61,878 nt of DNA from an uncultured Bacilli bacterium (lineage in GTDB: Bacteria; Bacillota_I; Bacilli_A; RF39; UBA660). Each line of letters opens with the position of its first letter. Position 1 is the stretch's first letter. The position numbers and the translations under genes were made by a program. The notes beneath the pieces were generated by a model that was not told where the DNA came from, made no database searches, and was given only the letters and a program-made list of their open reading frames with translations. This document shows, in pieces, positions 2,377 to 61,878 of this stretch. Location: contig CAKOIJ010000002.1 in NCBI GenBank assembly GCA_934086775.1, positions 1 through 61,878 of the forward strand. The letters are read 5' to 3'.

Positions 2377-3850
2377 TAAAAGTATATATTGGGCTATAGT
2401 ATCAATTATATTACTAAGTAGTCTAATATTTATACTAGGAACAGGTCGTAAAAGTCTTGAAAATGAACCAATGACTGTTTATGAAGTGTACCTAGATGGA
2501 AATTCTCTTGGAATAATCGAGGATGAAAAAGAACTTTATAGTTTAATTGACAAAGAGCAAGAAACTTTAAAAAAGAAATTTGGAGTAAACAAAATATATG
2601 CACCAATAGGTTTAGAAACTACTAAACTTCTAACATATAAAGGAGAAGTAGAAAAAGCATCAAGTGTATACGAAAAATTAAAAGACAAAGCGGAGTTTAC
2701 TATAAAAGGTTATGAAGTAACTATTAACTATGATGAAAAAAACAACATAAAACTAAATGTACTTAAAAAAGAAGATTTTGATGAAGCAGTTGATAACACT
2801 ATAAAAGCATTCGTTGATGAAAAACAATATGAAGCTTACTTAAATGGTAAACAAACAGAAATAAAAACTACAGGTTCAACTATTGAAAACGTAAAAATAG
2901 GCGAAGACATTAGTGTAAAAGAAAAATATCTTAATGCAAAAGCAGAAATATTTACAGACGTAAACACACTAAGTAAATACTTATTATTTGGAACAACTGA
3001 ATCTCAAGGTACTCACATAGTTACTGGAGGAGAAACAATATCAGACATAGCGGATAAATACCAGTTAAGTACAAAAGAGTTTTTAATAGTTAACCCATCA
3101 ATAACAGGAGAAAATGCTCTTTTATTTGCAGGTCAAACAGTAAACATAGGATTAATTAATCCTAAAATAAGTATAGTAGTAGAAAACACCCTAATAGAAG
3201 ACAAAAATGTGGACTATAAAAGAGAAATAAAATATGATAAAAAATTAATGGTAGGTACTACTTACACAGAACAAAAAGGACAAGATGGTCTAAACAGGGT
3301 AAAATACTATACAGAAACAATAAATGGACAAATAACACAAGTTGTACCAATGTCATCTGAAGTTATAACACCAGTTGTAAATGAAGTAGTTATAAAAGGT
3401 GGTTTATCTAGTAACTATCTAGGAGATACAGGTGCATGGGCTTGGCCAACTAACCCAGGATACATGATAGTTTCTACATTTGGATATAGATGGGACCCTG
3501 TATATAAAAATCCTGATGGTTCTCCAAAACGTGAATTTCACAGAGGAATAGACATTTGTGGTACTGGTTTTGGATCTCCAATTTATGCAGCAAATTCAGG
3601 AACAGTTATAAAGGCAACATACCACTATGAAATGGGAAATGTAATATATATTGACCATGGGAAGGGATATGTTACAATATACATGCACATGACTAAATTT
3701 GCATCGAACATTAAAGTAGGATATGCAGTAGAAAAAGGAGAACAAATAGGATATATGGGTTCAACAGGTAAAAGTACTGGAACACACGTAGACTTCAGAG
3801 TAAAATATAATGATGAATACATTGACCCACTACTACTAAATTACAGATAA
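2369..3850 (+). CDS. Membrane-anchored LysM / G5 / M23 metallopeptidase
   Basis: N-terminal TM helix, LysM (HIVTGGETISDIADKYQLSTKEFLIVNP), a G5-like segment, and M23 motifs HRGIDI and HVDFRV. ATG 2369 follows a GAGGA RBS; the track start 2354 is GTG. Confidence 0.85.
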   Translation: MNNKSIYWAIVSIILLSSLIFILGTGRKSLENEPMTVYEVYLDGNSLGIIEDEKELYSLIDKEQETLKKKFGVNKIYAPIGLETTKLLTYKGEVEKASSVYEKLKDKAEFTIKGYEVTINYDEKNNIKLNVLKKEDFDEAVDNTIKAFVDEKQYEAYLNGKQTEIKTTGSTIENVKIGEDISVKEKYLNAKAEIFTDVNTLSKYLLFGTTESQGTHIVTGGETISDIADKYQLSTKEFLIVNPSITGENALLFAGQTVNIGLINPKISIVVENTLIEDKNVDYKREIKYDKKLMVGTTYTEQKGQDGLNRVKYYTETINGQITQVVPMSSEVITPVVNEVVIKGGLSSNYLGDTGAWAWPTNPGYMIVSTFGYRWDPVYKNPDGSPKREFHRGIDICGTGFGSPIYAANSGTVIKATYHYEMGNVIYIDHGKGYVTIYMHMTKFASNIKVGYAVEKGEQIGYMGSTGKSTGTHVDFRVKYNDEYIDPLLLNYR

Positions 3851-4602
3851 TGAAAATAGCAGTATTAGGAAGTGGTTCAAAAGGAAACTCTACATATATA
3901 GATTTAGGAAATAAAAAGATCTTAATAGATGTAGGGTTTTCCTATAAACAAATCAAAGAAAAATTAAAAATAATAAATGTAGATCCAAAAGAAATATCTG
4001 CGGTATTAATAACACATGATCATAGTGACCATACATATGGTTTAAAAGTATTTCTAAAAGAAGTAAAACCAGATTTATTCATAACTCCTGAAGTTGAAAA
4101 AGAAGTACTTGGTTTCTCGTATGAAAAAAGTATATATCTAACTGATGAAAACTACTACTATGGTTCACTTTTCAAAACAATACCAACAAGTCATGATGCA
4201 ATAACTTCTAACGGTTACCTAATAGAAAACAATGAAGAAAGTTTGGTATATATAACTGATACAGGTTATATAAATTTAAGGCATGTAACGTATTTAAAAA
4301 ACAAAAATTACTATATAATAGAAAGTAATCACGATACAGAAAAACTAATAAAAGGACCTTATCCTGAATACTTACAAAGAAGAATACTTTCAGATAAGGG
4401 ACACTTATCAAATGAATTATGTGCGGGTTATCTGAGCAGACTAATTGGAAAAGATACCAAAAAAGTAGTGTTGGCCCATTTATCTGAAACAAATAACACG
4501 GAAGAATTAGCGCTTACAACGAACAAAAGAATACTAAAAGAAAATGAAATAGATTTTAAAGACATAGTATGTGCTAGCGAAGAAAAGGTATTGATAATAT
4601 GA
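3850..4602 (+). CDS. yycJ: MBL-fold metallo-hydrolase, YycJ/WalJ-like
   Basis: ITHDHSDH metallo-beta-lactamase motif, ~250 aa, conserved position upstream of rlmH. Confidence 0.75.
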   Translation: MKIAVLGSGSKGNSTYIDLGNKKILIDVGFSYKQIKEKLKIINVDPKEISAVLITHDHSDHTYGLKVFLKEVKPDLFITPEVEKEVLGFSYEKSIYLTDENYYYGSLFKTIPTSHDAITSNGYLIENNEESLVYITDTGYINLRHVTYLKNKNYYIIESNHDTEKLIKGPYPEYLQRRILSDKGHLSNELCAGYLSRLIGKDTKKVVLAHLSETNNTEELALTTNKRILKENEIDFKDIVCASEEKVLII

Positions 4603-27149: not shown

Positions 27150-27385
27150 TTATCAAAACGAAGAAAAAGAGAAGTAAAATTATATTTTATTTAAGAGAGC
27201 TAACGGATGGTGAAAGTTAGTAATAAAAATAATTTGAATAACACTTTGGAGTGCTTTTCTGAAATTATAAAGTAGGGAAAGCCGTATAGATGCGTTAAAT
27301 CTTAAAGTGATCTATTGATATAGATAAATTAGGTGGCACCGCGGAAGCAGTATTTCGTCCTTTTTTGGATAAATACTGCTTTTAA
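27150..27385 (+). promoter_or_regulatory. T-box riboswitch leader (Asn specifier) of asnS
   Basis: AGAGA and GGATGGTGAAAG elements, AAU AAC A specifier context (AAC at 27240..27242), T-box AAATTAGGTGGCACCGCGG (27326..27344), terminator aagcagtattt/aaatactgctt (27345..27381). A TTGACA -35 box lies at 27117. Confidence 0.85.
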
Positions 27386-27407
27386 TTTATAAGAAAGGAT
27401 GGTAAAT

Positions 27408-28793
27408 ATGAATTACACATATTTAAAAGATTTATTTGAAAACGAAGAAAAATTAATAGGAAAAGAAATTACACTAAAAGGATGGATTAGAAATCATAGA
27501 CCTCAAAAAGAATTTGGTTTTATAGATTTTTCTGATGGTACAAGTTTTAGACATTTACAAGTGGTGTATACAAGTGAAATAGAAAATTTTGAAGAACTCT
27601 CTAAATTACATAATGGTTCAAGTATTAAAGTGGTGGGAGAATATATTAAGTCAGAAGGTTCAGGTCAAGAATATGAATTGAAAGCAAAAATGATAGAACT
27701 AATAGAAGATTGTCCAGAAGATTATCCACTTCAACCAAAAAAACATAGCATGGAATTTCTAAGAAGCATTGCATATTTAAGACCTAGAGCTAATACTTTC
27801 CAAGCTGTATTCAGAGTAAGAAGTGTTGCAGCTTATGCAATACATAAGTATTTTAATGAAAATAATTATATATATGTTCATACACCTCTTTTAACAACAG
27901 CGGATTGTGAAGGTTCTGATCAAATGTTCAAAGTAACTACTTTGGATTTCGATAATTTGCCAAAAAAAGATGGGAAAGTCGATTTTAGTAAAGATTTATT
28001 TAATAAAAAAACTTTTATTACTGGTTCAGGCCAACTTCATGGAGAAACTTTTGCTCTTGCATTCAGCAAAATCTATACCTTTGGGCCAACATTTAGAACA
28101 GAAAACTCAAATACCAAAACGCATGCTAATGAATTTTGGATGATAGAACCTGAAATAGCCTTTGCAGACATTAATGACTTGATGGATATTGAAGAAGATT
28201 TCTTGAAATATATTGTTAAACATGTATTGGAGGAGTGCCCAAATGAAATTGAATTTTTTGACAAATTTGTAGAAAAAGGATTAAAAGAAAAACTTGAAAA
28301 AGTAGTAAATAGTAAATTCGTTAGAATAGATCATAAAGACGTAATAGATCTTTTAATTAACAGTGGCGAGAAGTTTGAGTTTACCCCATCATATGATGAT
28401 GACATTGCAAAAGAACATGAAAAATGGCTTACAAAACACTTTAATGGACCAGTATTTGTTAAAAACTGGCCAAAAGATATAAAAGCTTATTATATGAAAC
28501 TTAATGAAGATGGTAAAACTGTTGCAGCAGTTGATTTAGAAGTGCCAGGTTCTGGTGAACTTATGGGTGGTTCACAAAGAGAAGAAAAACTAGACATTTT
28601 ATTAGCGCGTATGGAAGAACTTGGAATAGATAAAGAACCAATCGACTGGTATTTAAATTTAAGACGTTATGGAGGATGCATTCATTCAGGATTTGGAATG
28701 GGATTTGAAAGACTTATTATGTATCTAACAGGAATAGAAAATATTAGAGATGTAATAGCATACCCTAGAACTCCAAACAACTGTTTATATTAA
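27408..28793 (+). CDS. asnS: Asparaginyl-tRNA synthetase
   Basis: OB-fold N-terminus, class II motifs (FRTENSNTKTHANEFWMIEPE, GFGMGFERL). ATG 27408 is properly spaced from the AAAGGA RBS. Confidence 0.93.
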   Translation: MNYTYLKDLFENEEKLIGKEITLKGWIRNHRPQKEFGFIDFSDGTSFRHLQVVYTSEIENFEELSKLHNGSSIKVVGEYIKSEGSGQEYELKAKMIELIEDCPEDYPLQPKKHSMEFLRSIAYLRPRANTFQAVFRVRSVAAYAIHKYFNENNYIYVHTPLLTTADCEGSDQMFKVTTLDFDNLPKKDGKVDFSKDLFNKKTFITGSGQLHGETFALAFSKIYTFGPTFRTENSNTKTHANEFWMIEPEIAFADINDLMDIEEDFLKYIVKHVLEECPNEIEFFDKFVEKGLKEKLEKVVNSKFVRIDHKDVIDLLINSGEKFEFTPSYDDDIAKEHEKWLTKHFNGPVFVKNWPKDIKAYYMKLNEDGKTVAAVDLEVPGSGELMGGSQREEKLDILLARMEELGIDKEPIDWYLNLRRYGGCIHSGFGMGFERLIMYLTGIENIRDVIAYPRTPNNCLY

Positions 28794-28828: not shown

Positions 28829-28918
28829 TAATAGTTTATTTTATAACAAAATCTTTTAATTTATTCATATTTGCTGTATAATATAAACATTAAAAAGCAA
28901 AAATAGGAGTTGATAACT

Positions 28919-31324
28919 ATGTATAATTTTGATGAAGTAGAAAAAAAATGGCAAGAGTACTGGGAAAAACATCACACTTTTGAAGTGAAAAATGAAGGTA
29001 AAAATCCATATTACTTATTAGTTGAATTTCCATATCCAAGTGGTAGTGGCCTTCATGTAGGACATGTAAGAAGTTACACTGCTTTAGACTCAATGGCCAG
29101 AATGAAAAGAATGCAAGGATATAATGTATTGTTTCCTATGGGATTTGATGCTTTCGGAGCACCAGCAGAAGAATATGCTCTTAAAACACATACTCATCCC
29201 AAAGATGTCACTAAAGAATGTATAGATCACTTTAGAAATCAAATGAAAAGAATGGGCTTTGGTTTTGACTGGACAAGAGAATTTGCGACAACAGATCCGG
29301 ATTATTACAAATGGACACAATGGCAATTCTTACAATTTTTTAAACATGGAATGGCTTATAAGGATACAGTACCGGTAAACTGGTGTCCAAAATGTAAAAG
29401 TGTATTATCTAATGAAGATGCAGCTGGCGGGGTATGTGAGAGATGCGGCACTGAAGTTATACAAAAGGAAAAAAGTCAGTGGATGCTTAAAATGAGTTCA
29501 TATGCAGAAGATTTGCTTAAAGGTCTGGATGATACTCATTTTGCAGAAAAAGTTAAACTTGGTCAAATAAACTGGATAGGTAAATCAAGTGGAGTAGAAC
29601 TTGATGTTAATATAGTTGGTGGAGGCAAGTTTAGCGTTTTCACAACTTGTATTGAAACAGTATACGGAATTACTTTCTTCGTAATTGCCCCTGATGGCAA
29701 ATTAATAAAAGAATTAATGCCTAGAATTGAAAACAAAGAAGAAGTAGTAAAATACATAAACGAAACCGCAAAAAAATCAGACATGGATAGAACAGAACTT
29801 AACAAAGGAAAAACAGGTGTAGAATTAAAAGGATTAAAAGCAATAAATCCAGTTAACGGAAAAGAAGTTCCTATATTTATAGGTGACTTTGTATTAGGTG
29901 CATATGGCACAGGTGCTGTTATGGCTGTTCCTTCTCATGACCAAAGAGACTTTGAGTATGCTACAGTTCATAACATACCAATGATAAAAGTTATCGAAGG
30001 CAAAGATACTACTAATGAAGCATTTGAAAAAGGTGAGTACCTTGGTAAGGGATGCAAACTAATAAATTCAGAAGAATTTACTGGATTGACAGTAGAAGAA
30101 GCAAAAGAAAAAATAACTAAATACCTAGAAGAAAAAGGAATAGCAAAAAAAGTAAACAATTATAAAATGAGAGATTGGATATTCAGTAGACAAAGATTCT
30201 GGGGAGAACCAATACCAATGATAAATTGCCCAGAATGTGGATGGGTACCTATGGATGAAAAAGACTTACCTCTTTTACTTCCAGATGTTGCTGAATATGA
30301 ACCAACTGAAACTGGAGAAAGTCCTCTTGCTAAAATATCTGAATGGGTTAACTGTAAATGTCCAAAATGTGGTAATGATGCTAAAAGAGAAACAGATACT
30401 ATGCCACAGTGGGCTGGAAGTAGCTGGTATTTTCTAAGATTTATGGATGCCCATAACAATAAAGAATTTGCTAGTATGGAAGCAATGAAATACTGGAATA
30501 AAGTAAACTGGTACAATGGTGGAATGGAACACACTGCAAGACATCTATTATATGCAAGATTTTGGGTACAAATGCTTTATAACTTTGGTTTAGTTCCTAA
30601 CAAAGAAATGATAGACATAAGAGTTAGTCACGGAATGATACTTGGTAACAATCATGAAAAAATGAGTAAAAGTAAAGGTAATGTAATAAATCCAGATGAC
30701 ATAGTTAAAGAAGTTGGAGCAGATGCTTTAAGAGTTTATGAAATGTTTATAGGTGATTACCAACAAGATGCAGTTTGGTCAACTGACTCTTTAAGAGGAT
30801 GTAAAAGATTTTTAGACAAAATTGTTAGAATGGGTGAAAAAGTAGTAGAAAGTAATAAAATAAACGATGAGGTATTAATAAATAAAACGATTAAAAAAGT
30901 TACAGAAGACTTACTTACTCTTAAATATAACACAGCAGTTTCTTCATTAATGATTTTATCTAATGAACTAGATAAAAATGAAACAATTTCTAAAGAAGAA
31001 TACAGAATATTACTAACATTACTTAACCCGGTAGCGCCTCACATAACAGAAGAGCTAAATGAAAAATATAATTTAGGTAAACCAATATGTGAAAGTGAAT
31101 GGCCAAAATATGATGAAAGTAAAATAGTAGAAAAAACTGCGAAAATTGCTGTACAAGTAAATGGTAAACTGAGAAGTACAATCGAAGTGGAAGCAGACAC
31201 TCCAAAAGAAGAATTAATAAAACTTTCTAAAGAACTAGACAATGTAAAAAAACATATTGATGGAATGACTATAATTAAAGAAATAGTAGTGCCTAATAAA
31301 ATTGTTAACATTGTAGTTAAATAG
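28919..31324 (+). CDS. leuS: Leucyl-tRNA synthetase
   Basis: PYPSGSGLHVGH (HIGH), CP1 editing domain, KMSKSKGN. ATG 28919 lies 9 nt after AGGAG. Confidence 0.95.
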   Translation: MYNFDEVEKKWQEYWEKHHTFEVKNEGKNPYYLLVEFPYPSGSGLHVGHVRSYTALDSMARMKRMQGYNVLFPMGFDAFGAPAEEYALKTHTHPKDVTKECIDHFRNQMKRMGFGFDWTREFATTDPDYYKWTQWQFLQFFKHGMAYKDTVPVNWCPKCKSVLSNEDAAGGVCERCGTEVIQKEKSQWMLKMSSYAEDLLKGLDDTHFAEKVKLGQINWIGKSSGVELDVNIVGGGKFSVFTTCIETVYGITFFVIAPDGKLIKELMPRIENKEEVVKYINETAKKSDMDRTELNKGKTGVELKGLKAINPVNGKEVPIFIGDFVLGAYGTGAVMAVPSHDQRDFEYATVHNIPMIKVIEGKDTTNEAFEKGEYLGKGCKLINSEEFTGLTVEEAKEKITKYLEEKGIAKKVNNYKMRDWIFSRQRFWGEPIPMINCPECGWVPMDEKDLPLLLPDVAEYEPTETGESPLAKISEWVNCKCPKCGNDAKRETDTMPQWAGSSWYFLRFMDAHNNKEFASMEAMKYWNKVNWYNGGMEHTARHLLYARFWVQMLYNFGLVPNKEMIDIRVSHGMILGNNHEKMSKSKGNVINPDDIVKEVGADALRVYEMFIGDYQQDAVWSTDSLRGCKRFLDKIVRMGEKVVESNKINDEVLINKTIKKVTEDLLTLKYNTAVSSLMILSNELDKNETISKEEYRILLTLLNPVAPHITEELNEKYNLGKPICESEWPKYDESKIVEKTAKIAVQVNGKLRSTIEVEADTPKEELIKLSKELDNVKKHIDGMTIIKEIVVPNKIVNIVVK

Positions 31325-32207: not shown

Positions 32208-32786
32208 ATGAAATATTTAGGGTCAAAAATAATAGAAACAGAAAGAACAAAGTTAAGACCAACAATCGAATCAGACTTAATCACACTATGGAAAATGTTA
32301 GGAGATAAAGAACTTTCTAAATACTATTTAGTAGGAAAATATAATGAAGATTGGGAACAAGAGAAAAAATGGCAATATAAAAAATTAGAAAATGCGTTAA
32401 ATATGAATGTCTTCCAGTGGACAATAGTTTTAAAGGAAACTGGGGAAGTAATCGGCCAAATTTGCTGCCAAAACATAACAGATAAACCAGACACCATAAG
32501 AGACTTAGGATGGTTTATAGATAGAAAATATCAAGGGAAGGGCTTAGGTAGCGAAGTATCAAAAGCAGTAGTCGACTATATGTTTGAAGAGGTAGAAATA
32601 GATAAAATTGAGACGTCTGCTGCTGTAATTAACCCAGCATCTTGGAAACTAATGGAAAAAATGAACTTTAACAAAACAGGAAAATCTATAAATACCAAAT
32701 ACACTTTCCTAAATGAAGAAATAAAATGCGTATGCTATGAAATTACAAGAGATGAGTACATAAATAGAAAGCATCTAAAAAAATGA
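32208..32786 (+). CDS. GNAT-family N-acetyltransferase (RimJ/RimL-like)
   Basis: TERTKLRP N-terminus and QGKGLGSE acetyl-CoA binding motif. Confidence 0.8.
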   Translation: MKYLGSKIIETERTKLRPTIESDLITLWKMLGDKELSKYYLVGKYNEDWEQEKKWQYKKLENALNMNVFQWTIVLKETGEVIGQICCQNITDKPDTIRDLGWFIDRKYQGKGLGSEVSKAVVDYMFEEVEIDKIETSAAVINPASWKLMEKMNFNKTGKSINTKYTFLNEEIKCVCYEITRDEYINRKHLKK

Positions 32787-32903
32787 TATAGTGCTAAGAG
32801 GGGAAAATTAGATTGATGTTCAGAAGAGAATTACTACAAAAGCATAAAATATTATATTATTTAAGTGATTATAATTTTTATTTAATTTTTTGGTATAACA
32901 ATT

Positions 32904-32927
32904 ATATGGTATCTTAAGATACCATAT
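32904..32927. repeat. Perfect 24-nt palindrome
   Basis: atatggtatctt|aagataccatat; no clear T tract follows. Confidence 0.5.
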
Positions 32928-33040
32928 TACCTTTAAATATTATGTATCAATACATTAATTTATGATTTTCTCCCGAAATTGAAAACAAATTTTTTACAAA
33001 AATTAATCATTAAAAATGGCAAAAACATGTGAAAAAACAT

Positions 33041-33069
33041 TTGACAAACAGGAAAATATATGATACTCT
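33041..33069 (+). promoter_or_regulatory. Candidate promoter of the queC-like operon
   Basis: TTGACA (33041..33046), 17-nt spacer ending in TGa, TACTCT (33064..33069). Confidence 0.45.
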
Positions 33070-33099
33070 TTAAACAGAAAAGGCGAAAATAAATCATAA

Positions 33100-33358
33100 T
33101 ATGATATTTGCAGTTTAAGTTGCGCAAATGTTATTGTGAATTTTGATTAGTGTTAATCATTAAATACATTAATATTAGAGATTTAGATTGAGATATCATA
33201 ATTATATGATGTCTCTTCTTTTGGATATTAAACAATATTTGTAGTTAAAGTTGCACAAATAATTAATATCGCAAATATAATATTAATGTTTTTATTAGAT
33301 TTGCATAAATATTTGATGAGTTTGATTGGGAATATTGCGAGAGACAATATTCCCTTTT
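33100..33358 (+). promoter_or_regulatory. Tandem structured leader: two copies of a covarying hairpin, each followed by an intrinsic terminator
   Basis: Hairpin 1 is ATTTGC-agtttaagttgc-GCAAAT (33106..33129) and terminator 1 is gagatatcata/tatgatgtctc+ttctttt (33190..33222). Hairpin 2 is ATTTGT-agttaaagttgc-ACAAAT (33237..33260) and terminator 2 is gggaatattg/caatattccc+tttt (33328..33358). Confidence 0.6.
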
Positions 33359-33381
33359 CAAATATTAGAAGGAGGAAACTT

Positions 33382-34041
33382 ATGAAAAAAGCAATTATTG
33401 CTATTAGTGGAGGAATTGATAGTGCAGTTGTAGCGGCTTTAGCAAAAAAAGAGGGGTATGATTTATATTTTTTAACTGTAGATTATGGTCAAAAGAATAT
33501 AAAAAAAGAGTTACAGAACTCAAAGGCATTAGCAAAAAAATTTGGAGTTGTGGAACATAAAATTATTGATATGAAATGGTTGGGAGATTTAGGCAATTCA
33601 ATAACAACAGACATTAATATTCATTTTGAAAACGTATCGGACGATTTTATATATGTTCCATATAGAAACACGTGCATTATATCAGCATGTGTAGCATGGG
33701 CTGAAACAATAGATGCCGATGTAATATATACTGGTAGTGATGGGGGACCATTTGTGTGTCCTGATAATAGCCCAGAATATTACAAGAGTATAAATGACCT
33801 TGTTTCGATGTCAACAAAACTAAACACAAAAATTAAAGTAGTTGCACCACTTAATTACAGCGATAAGGCAGATATCATAAAAAAAGGATTAGAATTGAAT
33901 TTACCATTTGAAAACACTTGGAGTTGCGTTGTAAGAGATGATAAGGCTTGTGGTATTTGTAAACCATGTAGAGACAGAATAGAAGGATTCAAAAAAGTAG
34001 GAGTAAATGATCCTATAGAATACCTTGAAGGAGGAAAATAA
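33382..34041 (+). CDS. queC: QueC-family PP-loop ATPase (7-cyano-7-deazaguanine synthase-like)
   Basis: AISGGIDS PP-loop, VDYGQ, VPYRN, C-terminal Cys cluster SCVVRDDKACGICKPCRDR. ATG 33382 follows GGAGGA; the track start 33286 would place terminator 2 inside the CDS. Confidence 0.8.
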   Translation: MKKAIIAISGGIDSAVVAALAKKEGYDLYFLTVDYGQKNIKKELQNSKALAKKFGVVEHKIIDMKWLGDLGNSITTDINIHFENVSDDFIYVPYRNTCIISACVAWAETIDADVIYTGSDGGPFVCPDNSPEYYKSINDLVSMSTKLNTKIKVVAPLNYSDKADIIKKGLELNLPFENTWSCVVRDDKACGICKPCRDRIEGFKKVGVNDPIEYLEGGK

Positions 34042-34704
34042 ATGAAAAGTAAAGAAACAACAAATCAATTTTATTCAAAAATATTTCTTTTTATATCCAT
34101 ACTATTTGTAGCGTGTATACTAATATCCAATATACTCGCTTCAAAGATAATAAATATATTTGGTTTTTCGATGACTGGAGGAGTACTAGTATTTCCTATA
34201 ACATATATTTTAGGAGATGTAATTACAGAAATTTATGGCTACAAGAATTCAAAAAAAATCATTATTTATGGATTTATCTGTAATTTACTAATGGTATTAT
34301 TATTTGCACTTGCAATAAAGCTTCCTTACCCAGATTACTGGCAAAATCAAGAAGCATTTATATCAATATTAAGTAATACACCAAGATTACTATTGGCTTC
34401 TTTTATAGGATATTTAGTTGGTGGTTTATCGAACTCATATATTATGGAATACATAAAAAACAACTCTAAAATTAAACATTTATGGTTCAGAACAATACTT
34501 TCAACTATAGTTGGTGAAAGCCTAGATACCTTTATATTCTTAATGATAGGATTTTATGGCACAATGAAAACAAACAACTTATTGCCTATGATTTTTTATC
34601 AATCTTTAGCTAAAATATTGTATGAAACTTTATTTACGCCAATCACATACAAAGTAATCACATACATTAAAAAGAAAGAAAAAAGCTTGAATTATGTACA
34701 CTAA
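34042..34704 (+). CDS. yhhQ: YhhQ/Vut_1 (DUF165)-family queuosine-precursor transporter
   Basis: Six hydrophobic segments and VFPITYILGDVITEIYGY, VGESLDTFIFL motifs typical of the family. Starts 1 nt after the queC stop. Confidence 0.8.
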   Translation: MKSKETTNQFYSKIFLFISILFVACILISNILASKIINIFGFSMTGGVLVFPITYILGDVITEIYGYKNSKKIIIYGFICNLLMVLLFALAIKLPYPDYWQNQEAFISILSNTPRLLLASFIGYLVGGLSNSYIMEYIKNNSKIKHLWFRTILSTIVGESLDTFIFLMIGFYGTMKTNNLLPMIFYQSLAKILYETLFTPITYKVITYIKKKEKSLNYVH

Positions 34705-34718
34705 AAAATGGTGATAAT

Positions 34719-35504
34719 ATGAAGAAGGAAAAAAAGAAATACAAAATAAGTGTAGTTATATGTGTGGCAGATGATTTGAGAATAAAAAATATGTTAGACA
34801 GCATTAATGAACATTGTGAGGTACTAATAGTTCTTAATGGGGCTACGCATCAATTAAAAGAAATCATAAATTGCTATGACTCAATGGATAGATTTGAATT
34901 AAACACAATTGAAATCGAAGAAAGAAATCTTAGTAAAGCTCGTAATTTAGGAATGATAAATGCAAAATACGATAAAGTAGTATTTTATGATAGTGATTGT
35001 ATTATGACAAAAAATGCTTTGCAAAACTATGATAAATATTTAGACAAATATTTATTAGTTGATGGTCAAGTAAATTTTAAAAGTGATAATTTTCAAAGCA
35101 AAATAATTAGTGTCCAAAGATCAATGGGGTTGCCAGGATACGCATTATGTCCATCAATAGGAATAAACAAAAAAATAAAAGACAAAATAGAATATTATTT
35201 TGATGAAGATATAAAATGGATAGAAGATTCAGAACTAAATGTACGTGTTCAAAACAAAAACATTAAAATAGGCTTTATAAATGATTTAACTTGTATCCAC
35301 GATAATTTGACATTTAGACAAGATTTAAAATCTGCTTATAGATATGGTACAGGTGTTAAAACAGCAAGTAGAAAAGGACTTCATAAAAAAAGTCCTAATG
35401 CAAATTGGAATTTAATAATTCCTTGTGTAAAAAAGAATATTTTAACTGGGGTTTATTGTATATTATGGAATATAGTATATTGTGTAGGTTATTACACAAG
35501 TTAG
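34719..35504 (+). CDS. Family 2 glycosyltransferase
   Basis: ISVVICVADD N-terminal beta-strand and the YDSD (DxD) motif. Confidence 0.75.
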   Translation: MKKEKKKYKISVVICVADDLRIKNMLDSINEHCEVLIVLNGATHQLKEIINCYDSMDRFELNTIEIEERNLSKARNLGMINAKYDKVVFYDSDCIMTKNALQNYDKYLDKYLLVDGQVNFKSDNFQSKIISVQRSMGLPGYALCPSIGINKKIKDKIEYYFDEDIKWIEDSELNVRVQNKNIKIGFINDLTCIHDNLTFRQDLKSAYRYGTGVKTASRKGLHKKSPNANWNLIIPCVKKNILTGVYCILWNIVYCVGYYTS

Positions 35505-35513
35505 GGAGGTAAA

Positions 35514-37157
35514 ATGAAAGTTTTAGGATTAAATGGATGGACAGAAAGAGGACACGATGGTGGAGCTAGTTTAATTGTGGATGGCAAATTATTGTTTTCT
35601 ATAGAAGAAGAAAAATTAATTGGAAAACGTCATGCCTACGATACTTTACCATTAGAATCAATAAAAGCATGTTTAAATGCGGGTAACATAACATTAGATG
35701 ATATTGACAGATTTGTCATAGGTTGGGATTTTGAAAAAATTTATAAAATGCTTGGGAAAGAATTTTTAACTAAAGAGGAAGTATCTAAAATTTTGTTTAA
35801 TAATAACAAATATGCAAATAAATTAGAATACTTAGAGCATCATAAAGCACATGCTTATAGTGCATTTATACCATCAAATTACGAAAAAGCGCTTGTATTA
35901 ATTGTAGATGGACAGGGTGAATATATGGGAACAACTTTATATTTGGCCGATAGAAACAAAAATGACTTGAAATTAATGATGGAAACACCGGTATCAATTG
36001 GATACTTTTATGCCGGAATTACAAAACAAATTGGTTTTAAAAGTGGAGAAGAAGGAAAGACTATGGGACTTGCTTCGTATGGAGAGCCTATATATGCAGA
36101 TGAATTAAGAAAACTAATATATTTAAAAGAAGATGGAAGTATAGGATGTGTATTTCATATAGATAAAATTAGCAAAGATGAAGAAGATGCAACACTTCAA
36201 AAATGGGAAAAATTATTATCAAAAATTATACCAAAAAGAGAAGGAAAAATAATTAATATAACTGAAGATATAATACCATATGCAAATCTAGCACGCTCTG
36301 CCCAAAAAGTAATAGAGGAATTGATGACTGGAATAATAAAAAAATACGTTAAAGAAACTGGTGTTCATAACGTTTGCATAGCAGGAGGTGTGGGTCTTAA
36401 TTGTCCTACTTCAACTGCCGTTGAAAAATTAAAAGAAGTAGATGGAGTATTTATACAACCTGCAGCAAATGATGGAGGTATATCATTAGGTGCCGCAATT
36501 CAAGGTGCACTTGATCTTGGAGATAATGTAAATATTGAAATGATACCTTATCTAGGAAATAAATTTTCTCAAGAAATAATTGAAAGTGAACTTCAAAAGA
36601 AAAATTATGAATACAAAGTATATGACAATATAGAAAAAATAATTGCAGAATTAATTTATGAAGGAAAAATAGTAGCAAATTACCAAGGACGCTTAGAACT
36701 AGGACCAAGAGCTTTAGGTAATCGTAGTCTGCTAGCAAGCCCTGAAAAATATGAAACTTTAGTTAGAATGAATGAACTAAAAGGAAGAGAAGTTTGGAGA
36801 CCTCTAGCACCTGCAGTTTTATATGACAAGCAAGAAATGGTGTTTGATTCAAATATATTTTCACCTCATATGACAAAAAACTTTAATGTGTTAAATGAAA
36901 TGAAAGATAAATTAGAGGCAATTACTCACGTTGATGGTACAGCGCGTATTCAATCAGTTACGAAAAAATATAATGAATTATTTTATAATATAATAAATGA
37001 ATTTTACAAATTATCAGGTATTCCAGTAGTTATAAATACATCCTTTAATGTAAAAGGAGAGCCAATTGTTAATACTCCAAGCGAAGCAATAGATAGTTTT
37101 GAAAGAATGAATTTAGACTATTTATCAATAGGAAGATGTTTAGTTAAAAAGAAATGA
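35514..37157 (+). CDS. NodU/CmcH/TobZ-family carbamoyltransferase
   Basis: MKVLGLNGWTERGHDGGASLIVDGKL, EHHKAHAYSAF, GGVGLNC, GPRALGNRSLLASP, NTSFNVKGEPIV motifs. Confidence 0.85.
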   Translation: MKVLGLNGWTERGHDGGASLIVDGKLLFSIEEEKLIGKRHAYDTLPLESIKACLNAGNITLDDIDRFVIGWDFEKIYKMLGKEFLTKEEVSKILFNNNKYANKLEYLEHHKAHAYSAFIPSNYEKALVLIVDGQGEYMGTTLYLADRNKNDLKLMMETPVSIGYFYAGITKQIGFKSGEEGKTMGLASYGEPIYADELRKLIYLKEDGSIGCVFHIDKISKDEEDATLQKWEKLLSKIIPKREGKIINITEDIIPYANLARSAQKVIEELMTGIIKKYVKETGVHNVCIAGGVGLNCPTSTAVEKLKEVDGVFIQPAANDGGISLGAAIQGALDLGDNVNIEMIPYLGNKFSQEIIESELQKKNYEYKVYDNIEKIIAELIYEGKIVANYQGRLELGPRALGNRSLLASPEKYETLVRMNELKGREVWRPLAPAVLYDKQEMVFDSNIFSPHMTKNFNVLNEMKDKLEAITHVDGTARIQSVTKKYNELFYNIINEFYKLSGIPVVINTSFNVKGEPIVNTPSEAIDSFERMNLDYLSIGRCLVKKK

Positions 37158-37166
37158 GAATAAGAA

Positions 37167-38063
37167 ATGATAAAAGAAATAATAGATAATAAACAATGGG
37201 ATGATGAAATATCTAAATCGGAAGATTGTACATTTTATCAATCTTCAAATAACAGAGGATTATGTGAATTTAATGGAGCAAAAACTTATTGTATAAAATA
37301 CCAAGGTGAAGAATCCAAAATACTTGCAATGGTTGCAGTGTACCCAAGTTTTATTAGTATACCTTTTGGACCAATAATATATGGAAAACAAGATGAAAAA
37401 GAGTTATTAAATTTCCTAAACATAGTTCGAAGAAAATTTAGATTGCCAGTAAAGTTTTGCCTTTTTAATGAAAAAATTGATAACTATAGTTGGATTCAAA
37501 ATAATGCTAGAAATGTTTGGAATTTCACAACAGCGTTGTTAAATGTTGATTCTGACATTGATACTATAAAAGCAAGATTTAATCAAAATAGAAGAAGAAT
37601 AATTAGAAAGGCACTTGTTAATTTAAAAGATTCTATTATAAGTATGGATAAAAATAATGCAGAATTATTTTACAAAATGTATAGTGAAAGATTATATACA
37701 ACACATGGAGAGGTAGACTTCACTTCAAATGAATTGCTAAATATGTTAAGAAACGAAAATGTAAATTTATATATGTGTATTTTAAATAGTAAACCCATAG
37801 CGGGGATAGTCACATTTAAATTTAATGATACATTGATTACTAGGTATAATTGTACGGATACTAAATATCTTTCATTAAATCCAAATTCATATTTAGATTA
37901 TTACTTAATTAATAAAGGGATTAAAGATCCAAATCTAAAATACTATGATTTCAGTGGAATATCAGAAGAAACTTCCAATGAAACAAAGCTAAAAAATATA
38001 GATAGATATAAATATTCATATGGACCTAATTTAATAAAAAAATATAATTGGTATATGTTTTAA
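37167..38063 (+). CDS. FemAB-like / GNAT-fold (Acetyltransf_6-type) transferase
   Basis: ~300 aa two-lobed pattern with FYQS, NQNRRRIIRKA and NPNSYLDYY segments, as in FemX/FemAB-like proteins. The donor substrate is unknown. Confidence 0.6.
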   Translation: MIKEIIDNKQWDDEISKSEDCTFYQSSNNRGLCEFNGAKTYCIKYQGEESKILAMVAVYPSFISIPFGPIIYGKQDEKELLNFLNIVRRKFRLPVKFCLFNEKIDNYSWIQNNARNVWNFTTALLNVDSDIDTIKARFNQNRRRIIRKALVNLKDSIISMDKNNAELFYKMYSERLYTTHGEVDFTSNELLNMLRNENVNLYMCILNSKPIAGIVTFKFNDTLITRYNCTDTKYLSLNPNSYLDYYLINKGIKDPNLKYYDFSGISEETSNETKLKNIDRYKYSYGPNLIKKYNWYMF

Positions 38064-61529: not shown

Positions 61530-61878
61530 TTTATTGAGAGTTTGATCCTGGCTCAGGATTAACGCTGGCGGCATGCCTAAGACATGCAAGTCGAACGGAA
61601 CACCCCACTGAAATCTGAATGAAGTCTGAGAGCTTGCTCAAAGATGGAATGACGGTGGACGTGGATTCTGTGTTCAGTGGCGAACGGGTGAGTAACACGT
61701 GGGTTACCTGCCTCTAAGTTGGGGACAACAGTTGGAAACGACTGCTAATACCGAATGTGATAGAAATATTAAAGGAGCCTTAAAGCTTCGCTTAGAGATG
61801 GGCCTGCGGCGTATTAGCTTGTTGGTGGGGTAATGGCCTACCAAGGCAACGATGCGTAGCCGGACTGAGAGGTTGAAC
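61530..61878 (+). rRNA. rrs: 16S ribosomal RNA, 5' ~350 nt (runs off the window)
   Basis: TTATTGAGAGTTTGATCCTGGCTCAG 5' end, GTCGAACGG, GGCGAACGGGTGAGTAACACGTGGG, GGAAACGACTGCTAATACCG. Confidence 0.97.

Follow-up and report, generated by a model that had tools for sequence, protein, structure and literature searches.

The window analysed here, a stretch of 61,878 nucleotides (nt) of contig CAKOIJ010000002.1 from an uncultured Bacilli bacterium, contains at 33040-33385 the 5′ leader of an operon whose first gene encodes a QueC-like protein. We found that this leader carries a cis-acting transcription attenuator of a 7-deazaguanine operon of uncultured gut bacteria, an RNA-level element made of two complete sensor-plus-terminator units in series, as a preliminary description drawn up from the sequence alone had proposed. 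Its expression platform is a classical terminator/antiterminator attenuator, with terminators between the promoter and the open reading frame (ORF) and an exclusive, covarying helix that sequesters the terminator 5′ arm, and its sensor is of no described family. On comparative evidence, the predicted sensor of this previously undescribed terminator/antiterminator RNA switch is a small hairpin with an AU-rich stem (P1) and a nearly invariant loop. The element, which like riboswitches in general unites a conserved sensor, covarying structure and invariant unpaired nucleotides, may constitute a new, very small riboswitch class.

The duplicated hairpin-terminator leader

A repeat finder returned a single direct repeat of 26 nt (33104-33129 and 33235-33260; 131 nt from start to start; 88% identity), the copies of which read ATATTTGY-AGTTWAAGTTGC-RCAAAT and are each followed by a terminator, between the promoter and the QueC-like gene. 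The two hairpins, ATTTGC-AGTTTAAGTTGC-GCAAAT (hairpin 1, 33106-33129) and ATTTGT-AGTTAAAGTTGC-ACAAAT (hairpin 2, 33237-33260), differ in their stems by one pair, C:G to T:A. The two similar units 131 nt apart, each with its terminator, that the preliminary description had picked out were recovered by the repeat finder, the terminator scan (for terminator 1) and folding, and its hairpin sequences and single stem-pair difference proved accurate; the stem it described exists but is longer than it stated, P1 having about 11 pairs in hairpin 1 and 7 in hairpin 2. The degenerate 24-mer, searched with up to three mismatches, occurs only at these two sites in the 61.9-kb window, where shuffles expect 0.00. 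The features of the leader are as follows:

33041-33069, + strand: likely sigma-70-like promoter, read from the sequence (TTGACA at 33041-33046, 17-nt spacer, extended -10 TGaTACTCT at 33061-33069)
33101-33134, + strand: sensor hairpin 1 (P1 33101-33111 with 33124-33134, about 11 pairs; loop AGUUUAAGUUGC at 33112-33123)
33100-33200, + strand: antiterminator 1, 33100-33121 (P1 5′ strand and loop) with about 33179-33200 (tail and terminator 1 5′ arm)
33183-33189, + strand: tail 1, UUAGAUU, complementary to nt 1-7 of the hairpin 1 loop (AGUUUAA)
33190-33222, + strand: intrinsic terminator 1 (stem-loop 33190-33215, 11 pairs, then UUCUUUU), called by the scan, where shuffles expect 0.1
33236-33261, + strand: sensor hairpin 2 (P1 33236-33242 with 33255-33261, 7 pairs; loop AGUUAAAGUUGC at 33243-33254)
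33233-33337, + strand: antiterminator 2, 33233-33249 (CAAUAUUUGUAGUUAAA) with 33320-33337 (tail and terminator 2 5′ arm)
33321-33327, + strand: tail 2, UUUGAUU, complementary to nt 1-7 of the hairpin 2 loop (AGUUAAA)
33328-33358, + strand: terminator 2 (stem-loop GGGAATATTGCGAGAGACAATATTCCC at 33328-33354, then UUUU)
33371-33375 and 33382, + strand: Shine-Dalgarno sequence GGAGG and ATG start codon of the QueC-like gene

Transcription is expected to start at about 33076. The promoter scan did not list the 33041-33069 promoter because its -10 element matches at only three of six positions; the same arrangement (TTGACA-17-TGnTAnnnT) stands 25-45 nt before the first hairpin in the related leaders L001, L002, L004, L005, L193, L197, L203, L207 and L259. 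As a promoter is readable at this place, all of the leader elements described are therefore expected to be transcribed. Hairpin 1 and terminator 1 fold at -10.2 and -13.2 kcal/mol, and hairpin 2 and terminator 2 at -4.5 and -13.9 kcal/mol. Terminator 2 failed the terminator scan because its T-tract is too short for the T-run rule of the scan; a terminator homologous to it (GGGAATATTG...CAATATTCCC) is found in most related leaders, and homologous terminators are found in all of them. Neither the Shine-Dalgarno sequence nor the start codon is sequestered by terminator 2.

Some further observations concern this region. An in-frame ATG at 33286 would add 32 codons, spanning terminator 2, to the QueC-like ORF; this extension is an artefact of ORF listing, since the start at 33382 has GGAGG 7 nt upstream and the one at 33286 is without a ribosome-binding site. 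The long linker of unit 2 contains an extra GCAAAT...ATTTGC hairpin (33271-33304), which includes the third ATTTGC copy remarked on in the preliminary description; the copy is present, at 33299-33304 rather than about 33298-33303. Neither L001 nor L003, whose unit-2 linkers are short, has this extra hairpin there; their unit-1 linkers, which are long, contain similar UUGCAU(U)AAU copies. Upstream, after a GNAT acetyltransferase gene (32208-32786), a perfect 24-nt palindrome (ATATGGTATCTT/AAGATACCATAT, 32904-32927) is likely to be a bidirectional terminator, insulating the queC-like promoter.

Conservation of the hairpin and covariation of its pairings

We gathered relatives, in species-representative genomes and metagenomic contigs, by searching with an alignment of QueC-like homologues, and built a covariance model (R1) from 25 distinct hairpins. 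Across 681 kb, on both strands, R1 has 33 matches of 42-56 bits (hairpin 1, 52.7 bits, E 5e-8; hairpin 2, 51.1 bits, E 1e-7), which come from about 13 gut and rumen Bacillota assemblies, and no further match, the next best scoring 21 bits (E 0.8). All 33 lie on the coding strand at most 400 nt upstream of a QueC-like start, before genes 65-80% identical to that of the window. The hairpin loci (L001-L005, L024, L193-L200, L202-L205, L207-L209, L257 and L259) are labelled as uncultured Bacilli, Clostridium, Erysipelotrichaceae and 'Muribaculaceae', from human, Hadza and rumen samples, and the motif is absent from the more distant orthologues (54-56% identity, L006-L013) and from Ignavibacteria. 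The comparison of homologous leaders that the preliminary description had suggested thus finds the hairpin conserved upstream of orthologous queC-like operons, with a P1 that covaries.

The loop, AGUU(A/U)AAGUUGC (12-13 nt), is nearly invariant: A1, G2, U3, U4, A6, A7, G8, U9 and G11 are the same in all 25 distinct hairpins, and U10 and C12 in at least 90%. The linkers from hairpin to terminator, by contrast, vary from 34 to 93 nt and cannot be aligned, which argues for purifying selection on the loop and not for recent common descent. In P1, the closing pair is CG in 15 hairpins, UA in 9 and UG in one, and the next is GC in 22 and UA in 3, with no broken cell in either. For covariation, P1 scores 0.291 and column shuffles 0.165, none of 500 shuffles reaching the observed value, and 83% of the P1 cells are paired in the true register versus 27-63% in registers slid by 1-3 columns. 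The stem-pair change between the two hairpins of the window, which the preliminary description had read as covariation, is genuine in that it recurs across the 25 distinct hairpins from some 13 assemblies.

These results leave practically no probability for a chance repeat or a recent local duplication devoid of function. The local DNA has a G+C content of 26-31%, a composition in which AT-rich inverted repeats turn up readily (621 nt yielded 72 inverted pairs), and duplications and deletions of units do occur (L193 versus L194; L002; L202); but such an origin is at odds with the shuffle expectation of 0.00 matches and with a motif kept across proteins 65-80% identical while the linkers diverged beyond alignment. 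The shuffles, the covariation of P1 and of the antiterminator (below) and the specificity of R1 together refute it.

The second conserved pairing is the antiterminator, a helix in which 12 nt of the P1 5′ strand and its flank, together with loop nt 1-8, pair with the 8-10 nt before the terminator and with the terminator 5′ arm. In an alignment of 19 units, which was assembled from the known hairpin and terminator positions and to that extent leans towards the structure, 85% of the cells are paired over 20 positions, as against 39-47% in slid registers. Six pairs have changes on both sides (CG/UA/UG; AU/GC/GU, never broken; AU/GC; and loop A5/U5 with tail U/A), and none of 500 shuffles reaches the observed covariation score. 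In the window itself, the A5-to-U difference between the loops of hairpins 1 and 2 is matched by a U-to-A difference between their tails (UUAGAUU versus UUUGAUU).

Folding points to the same helix. With RNAfold, the antiterminator is the minimum-energy fold of transcripts cut before the terminator 3′ arm in 18 of 18 units, and the full-length units are bistable, forming either hairpin plus terminator or the antiterminator within a few kcal/mol. Antiterminator 1, which excludes both hairpin 1 and terminator 1, gives a cut-transcript fold of -28.9 kcal/mol and a duplex of -15.8 kcal/mol (shuffled mean -4.2, z = -6.3; crossed partner -10.0); the corresponding values for antiterminator 2, also the minimum-energy fold, are -23.8 and -13.8 kcal/mol (shuffled mean -3.8, z = -5.4; crossed partner -3.8). 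All antiterminator duplexes are 3.7-7 standard deviations more stable than those with shuffled partners, and each hairpin is better fitted by its own terminator than by its neighbour's in four of five two-unit leaders. As an independent check, RNAalifold, applied to five short units aligned with MAFFT, returns the antiterminator with an inner hairpin of the P1 3′ strand and the linker.

The preliminary description had placed the antiterminator elsewhere, by pairing tcgcaaatat (33269-33278) with aatattgcga (33331-33340). This pairing has six contiguous pairs, is not in the minimum-energy folds and sits in a genome-specific linker insertion, which the linkers of the equivalent units of L001 and L003, about 35 nt long, do not have. 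The helix that is conserved and covaries draws instead on the hairpin 5′ strand and the 5′ half of the loop.

The two pairings also bear on whether the repeats act as DNA, i.e., as a pair of 24-bp palindromic operators downstream of the promoter that are bound by a dimeric repressor, the apparent covariation being operator symmetry. Symmetric half-site changes such as C:G to T:A are equally expected of a palindromic operator, and there are two sites, 131 bp apart. However, the most conserved part would then be an asymmetric 12-nt 'spacer', which faces the same way with respect to the gene in every one of the 33 matches; G-U pairs and U-U internal loops, meaningless in DNA, maintain some of the stems; the sites lie 30-200 nt inside the transcribed leader; and the 5′ half-site and spacer covary with the downstream terminator arm, as only an RNA mechanism predicts. 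We consequently hold DNA operators to be very improbable.

Among other RNA folds, we rejected a strand-swapped pairing of the two hairpins as the ground state, since the closing pairs covary within each hairpin (GC:GC, GU:AC, UC:GA) and the swap would produce mismatches. Loop-loop kissing of the guanidine-II kind was likewise rejected as a requirement, L004, L024 and L259 having one hairpin each and the self-complementarity being limited to UUAA/UUUAA. Mimicry of a tRNA anticodon loop or Tgt substrate (CAGUUAA versus CUGUUAA of tRNA-Asn) is unsupported, the U33-G34-U35 element being absent.

The units are combined in five forms across the leaders:

form i, hairpin-terminator followed by hairpin-terminator: window, L001, L003
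form ii, a single hairpin-terminator: L004, L024, L259
form iii, two hairpins (hpA and hpB) on one terminator: L005, L197, L203 and, with a decayed hpB, L257
form iv, a duplicated dual unit: L002, L193, L202
form v, a single unit followed by a dual unit: L207

The occurrence of form ii indicates that one hairpin plus a terminator is the minimal working module. L194 (3829-3990) has lost one whole [hpA hpB terminator] unit relative to L193 (3680-3990), the QueC-like proteins of the two being identical, and leader units are gained and lost through recombination between repeats. The remaining hpA of L194 has a G2-to-T change in its loop, and in L257 (2905-2935) hpB is broken by a deletion, with hpA and the terminator intact.

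Several leaders carry altered forms of the element. In two related operons, L201 (about 3050-3250) and L206 (about 95-290), the ACAATATT... 5′ strand and the GAATATTG...CAATATTC terminator are retained, but the loop is another and shorter one (TTCAGCCG or TCGACC), after which comes a conserved TGCAATCCGA; a remnant, ATATTTGTATAAGTTG, survives in L206 as well. These may be variant or decayed sensors. L211 (2800-3000) shows motif remnants only and no terminator, though its QueC-like gene is 78% identical to that of the window; this gene is not followed by glycosyltransferase 2 (GT2) or carbamoyltransferase genes. A metagenome scan with ATATTTNNAGTTN{1,2}AAGTTGY, too loose a pattern, returned 120 stretches, all chance matches without a stem, and two tighter patterns run against IMG/VR viral contigs returned 43, none with a hairpin context, so that by these patterns IMG/VR does not contain the motif.

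The operon behind the leader

The regulated operon spans 33382-38063 (+) and contains the following genes:

33382-34041, + strand: QueC-like protein (PF06508, E 1e-50; TIGR00364, 145.6 bits, just below the 150.3 cut-off)
34042-34704, + strand: YhhQ/Vut_1 preQ0/preQ1 (queuosine-precursor) transporter
34719-35504, + strand: GT2 glycosyltransferase
35514-37157, + strand: NodU/CmcH-type carbamoyltransferase
37167-38063, + strand: FemAB/Acetyltransf_6-like protein

The PF06508 match and the start at 33382 bear out the position before a queC-like gene that had been read by eye. The operons of the window, L193, L197, L202, L203, L207, L257 and L259 join 7-deazaguanine genes (QueC-like, YhhQ or QueD/QueE/FolE) with GT2 and carbamoyltransferase genes; the set also features the FemAB-like protein and a Na/alanine symporter, and the carbamoyltransferase is sometimes fused to a methyltransferase. 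QueD, QueE and FolE stand alongside the QueC-like protein in L193, L197, L202, L207 and L257, and no tgt, queA or queF was seen in the operons. By their gene content, the operons look like systems for making a glycosylated, carbamoylated 7-deazapurine and not tRNA queuosine.

The first gene after the leader encodes a divergent QueC paralogue, which in L207 (3001-3660) and L257 is 33% identical to the canonical QueC encoded directly after it (L207 3660-4343; the L257 pair lies within 3001-4343). The paralogue scores 145-149 bits on TIGR00364, below the cut-off of 150.3, versus 160.4 for the canonical copy, and its PP-loop and zinc cysteines are preserved; it may serve another catalytic step or play a second role. 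No recognisable RNA-binding domain was found in the operon proteins or in the adjoining proteins of any operon, and the flanking genes are not conserved, the upstream neighbours differing in every genome. Elsewhere in the window, the 5′ end of a 16S rRNA gene (61530-61878) runs off the window end.

Polarity, effector and relation to known switches

In the mechanism that we propose, whose order of strand exchange, OFF polarity and effector are those we infer to be most likely, the small hairpin of each unit (AU-rich P1, near-invariant 12-nt loop) would serve as an anti-antiterminator. The ON state would be the antiterminator (segments 1:4) around a 2:3 hairpin, and the OFF state P1 (1:2) together with the terminator (4:5). 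By default, the single-stranded tail before the terminator would pair with the 5′ half of the loop as a foothold, from which the terminator 5′ arm would displace the P1 3′ strand to yield an antiterminator of about 17-20 pairs and, with it, read-through. An effector on the loop would keep P1 closed, leaving the terminator 5′ arm free, so that the terminator would form and transcription would stop; the ligand would, in other words, occlude the loop 'toehold' and prevent invasion of P1 by the terminator arm. Such an OFF switch would amount to feedback repression, with preQ0, preQ1 or the operon product as the predicted effector.

Three features of the folds suggest this order and polarity. As the antiterminator wins before the terminator 3′ arm exists, the default should be read-through and the closed hairpin would have to be held for termination; and as the antiterminator helix runs uninterrupted from the loop into the P1 5′ strand, the tail probably pairs first with the loop and P1 is opened from the top. 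Loop nt 8-12 (GUUGC) are invariant, take no part in the antiterminator and have the closed hairpin as their sole common structural context across all architectures, which points to an effector that binds the hairpin state and thus to an OFF switch. A ligand on the antiterminator state, making an ON switch, is disfavoured because the nucleotides that face GUUGC there are not conserved. Two serial units, or two hairpins on one terminator, would sharpen the response: in the folds of dual units both hairpins melt into one long ON helix, so that both would need to be locked for termination.

Our first-choice explanation, advanced tentatively, is an OFF switch in which a 7-deazaguanine metabolite is bound directly by the RNA. 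It is favoured by the 7-deazaguanine gene content, the lack of an RNA-binding domain in the operon and the non-conserved flanking genes. Somewhat more doubtful, yet conceivable, is that the hairpin of about 30 nt, with or without the 7-nt tail pairing, forms a fourth structural class of 7-deazaguanine-sensing riboswitch, which would be among the smallest natural aptamers and, in occluding a toehold, would act in an unusual way. The conserved cytosine directly before the P1 3′ strand occupies the position of the specificity cytosine of preQ1-I (PMC11625349), which is a lead and not a test. Pairing of the loop with the tail would also arrange the parts in the sequence known from the preQ1-I pseudoknot.

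The main rival, somewhat less probable, retains the same RNA switch with a protein effector: an RNA-binding regulator would lock the anti-antiterminator hairpin with an affinity probably set by a 7-deazaguanine metabolite. Its gene could lie elsewhere in the genome, or the part could be played by a moonlighting enzyme of the operon, e.g., the QueC-like paralogue, which is divergent and always first after the leader. Protein-binding hairpins typically look like this sensor, which is only a stem and an invariant, asymmetric loop of 12 nt; the PyrR layout, too, is a series of binding hairpins with one terminator apiece; and the paired hairpins on one terminator (L002, L005, L193, L197, L202, L203, L207) would suit a dimeric protein. 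PyrR with UMP acts at three binding loops of the Bacillus pyr operon. Yet no protein with a known RNA-binding domain lies in or beside any operon, the upstream neighbours differ everywhere, single-hairpin leaders exist (L004, L024, L259) and the Rfam PyrR model has no match. The QueC-like protein itself is probably an enzyme, since it keeps its PP-loop and zinc cysteines and is the sole QueC in several of the QueD/QueE/FolE operons.

A kinetic attenuator with no dedicated effector, in which polymerase speed or pausing (e.g., through the level of GTP or of nucleoside triphosphates) or temperature decides the strand exchange, appears improbable. The two folds are close enough in energy for the outcome to hinge on co-transcriptional timing, and the pathway starts from GTP, with FolE in several operons; but the invariant GUUGC, unpaired in both folds across some 13 assemblies, and the retention of a second hairpin without its own terminator would be left unexplained.

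Returning to direct binding of a metabolite, several points weigh against it or temper its support, in addition to the lean of the antiterminator alignment noted above. For a metabolite aptamer, a hairpin with nothing but a 12-nt loop is unusually simple; it resembles a protein-binding site, e.g., the PyrR binding loops, at least as closely, and the protein-dependent pyr attenuators have exactly this tandem arrangement of hairpins and terminators. The 7-nt tail either lengthens the antiterminator helix or serves as one strand of a pseudoknot with the loop, two arrangements that covariation cannot separate because they use the same pairs. Orthologous operons without the motif have no known preQ1 riboswitch either, by the Rfam models, so the ligand cannot be argued from interchangeable riboswitches before the same gene. 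Every example belongs to a single clade of uncultured low-GC Bacillota, in which the independent lineages are modest in number and several units are recent duplicates. Finally, in the window, L001 and L003 the U-tract of the terminator adjoining the start codon is short or interrupted.

Comparison with described systems returned no counterpart of the sensor. Rfam 15 has nothing for the leader at gathering thresholds (whole window), at E <= 10 (32780-33420) or in 17 related loci, matches of microRNA-like hairpin models to terminator 1 being due to chance. The preQ1-I, -II and -III models (RF00522, RF01054, RF02680) are unmatched in the window, in the leader (E <= 10) and in the 17 related loci. 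The preliminary judgement that the leader does not fit preQ1-I thus holds, and its proposed Rfam check gives no match to this class, to preQ1-II or -III, or to any other known riboswitch class. No T-box (RF00230) was found in the queC-like leader, the sole one of the window (27152-27365, 147.9 bits) lying upstream of a 464-aa ORF (27399-28793) and not directly before leuS (28910-31324).

The element is nonetheless reminiscent of preQ1-I (RF00522, e.g., Bacillus subtilis queC) in being a very small sensor and, as proposed, a terminator-controlling OFF switch in the leader of a queC operon, and in the order of its possible parts: P1 5′ strand, tail-pairing loop segment, conserved segment ending in C, P1 3′ strand, linker and tail. 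The hallmarks of preQ1-I are a 5-bp P1, an A-rich L3 tail in the P1 minor groove and a short P2 pseudoknot. Here, P1 has 7-11 AU-rich pairs instead of 5 GC-rich ones, no A-rich L3 follows, what lies 3′ of P1 being unconserved and 11-60 nt long, and the antiterminator uses the P1 5′ strand and loop and not the 3′ tail. Tandem copies of the motif exist, too, an arrangement in which preQ1-I, -II and -III are listed as never having been found (PMC9481103).

The PyrR binding loops of pyr attenuators (RF00515) share the repeated anti-antiterminator hairpin, each copy with an antiterminator and a terminator, and the proposed logic, in which an effector on the hairpin favours termination. They differ in loop sequence, the model being unmatched, and in that the pyr antiterminator shares the 3′ strand of the hairpin, whereas the one described here takes the 5′ strand and encloses the rest; no PyrR- or phosphoribosyltransferase-like regulator is found among the operon proteins (QueC-like, Vut_1, GT2, carbamoyltransferase, FemAB-like). 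Guanidine-II (mini-ykkC, RF01068) resembles the [hpA hpB terminator] units of the relatives in having two similar small hairpins with conserved loops, a variable linker and one expression platform. However, the loops here are of 12-13 nt, AGUU(U)AAAGUUGC, and not ACGR tetraloops, there is no Rfam match, and the gene context is unrelated. Moreover, single hairpins with their own terminator occur here (the window units, L004, L024, L259), whereas a single guanidine-II hairpin does not function well (PMC9481103). Tandem 'pseudo-cooperative' riboswitches (e.g., of the thiamine pyrophosphate and c-di-GMP-I classes) likewise place two complete sensor-terminator units before one ORF, and such serial riboswitches are expected to give a steeper, more digital response (PMC9481103); the present sensor is of no described class and occurs also in dual-sensor/one-terminator and duplicated dual forms.

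Three classes of preQ1 riboswitch are known (PMC11625349, a 2024 review). Full-text literature searches found neither a fourth class for preQ1 or preQ0 nor this leader or operon in connection with a riboswitch, and a 2026 preprint that mines 7-deazapurine gene clusters makes no mention of riboswitches. The element is therefore a candidate for a new class before 7-deazaguanine operons, absent from Rfam, or alternatively for the target of a new PyrR-like RNA-binding regulator. If the former is true, it would be the first 7-deazaguanine switch in tandem and dual-sensor form, and one placed on a pathway that looks to be other than that of tRNA queuosine. Its short sensor, clean two-state design and natural single, serial and dual versions would make it useful for the study of co-transcriptional strand displacement and for synthetic switches. 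For the biology of these uncultured gut Bacillota, the leader marks an uncharacterised operon that may make a modified 7-deazapurine, and the ligand of the switch would point to its product.

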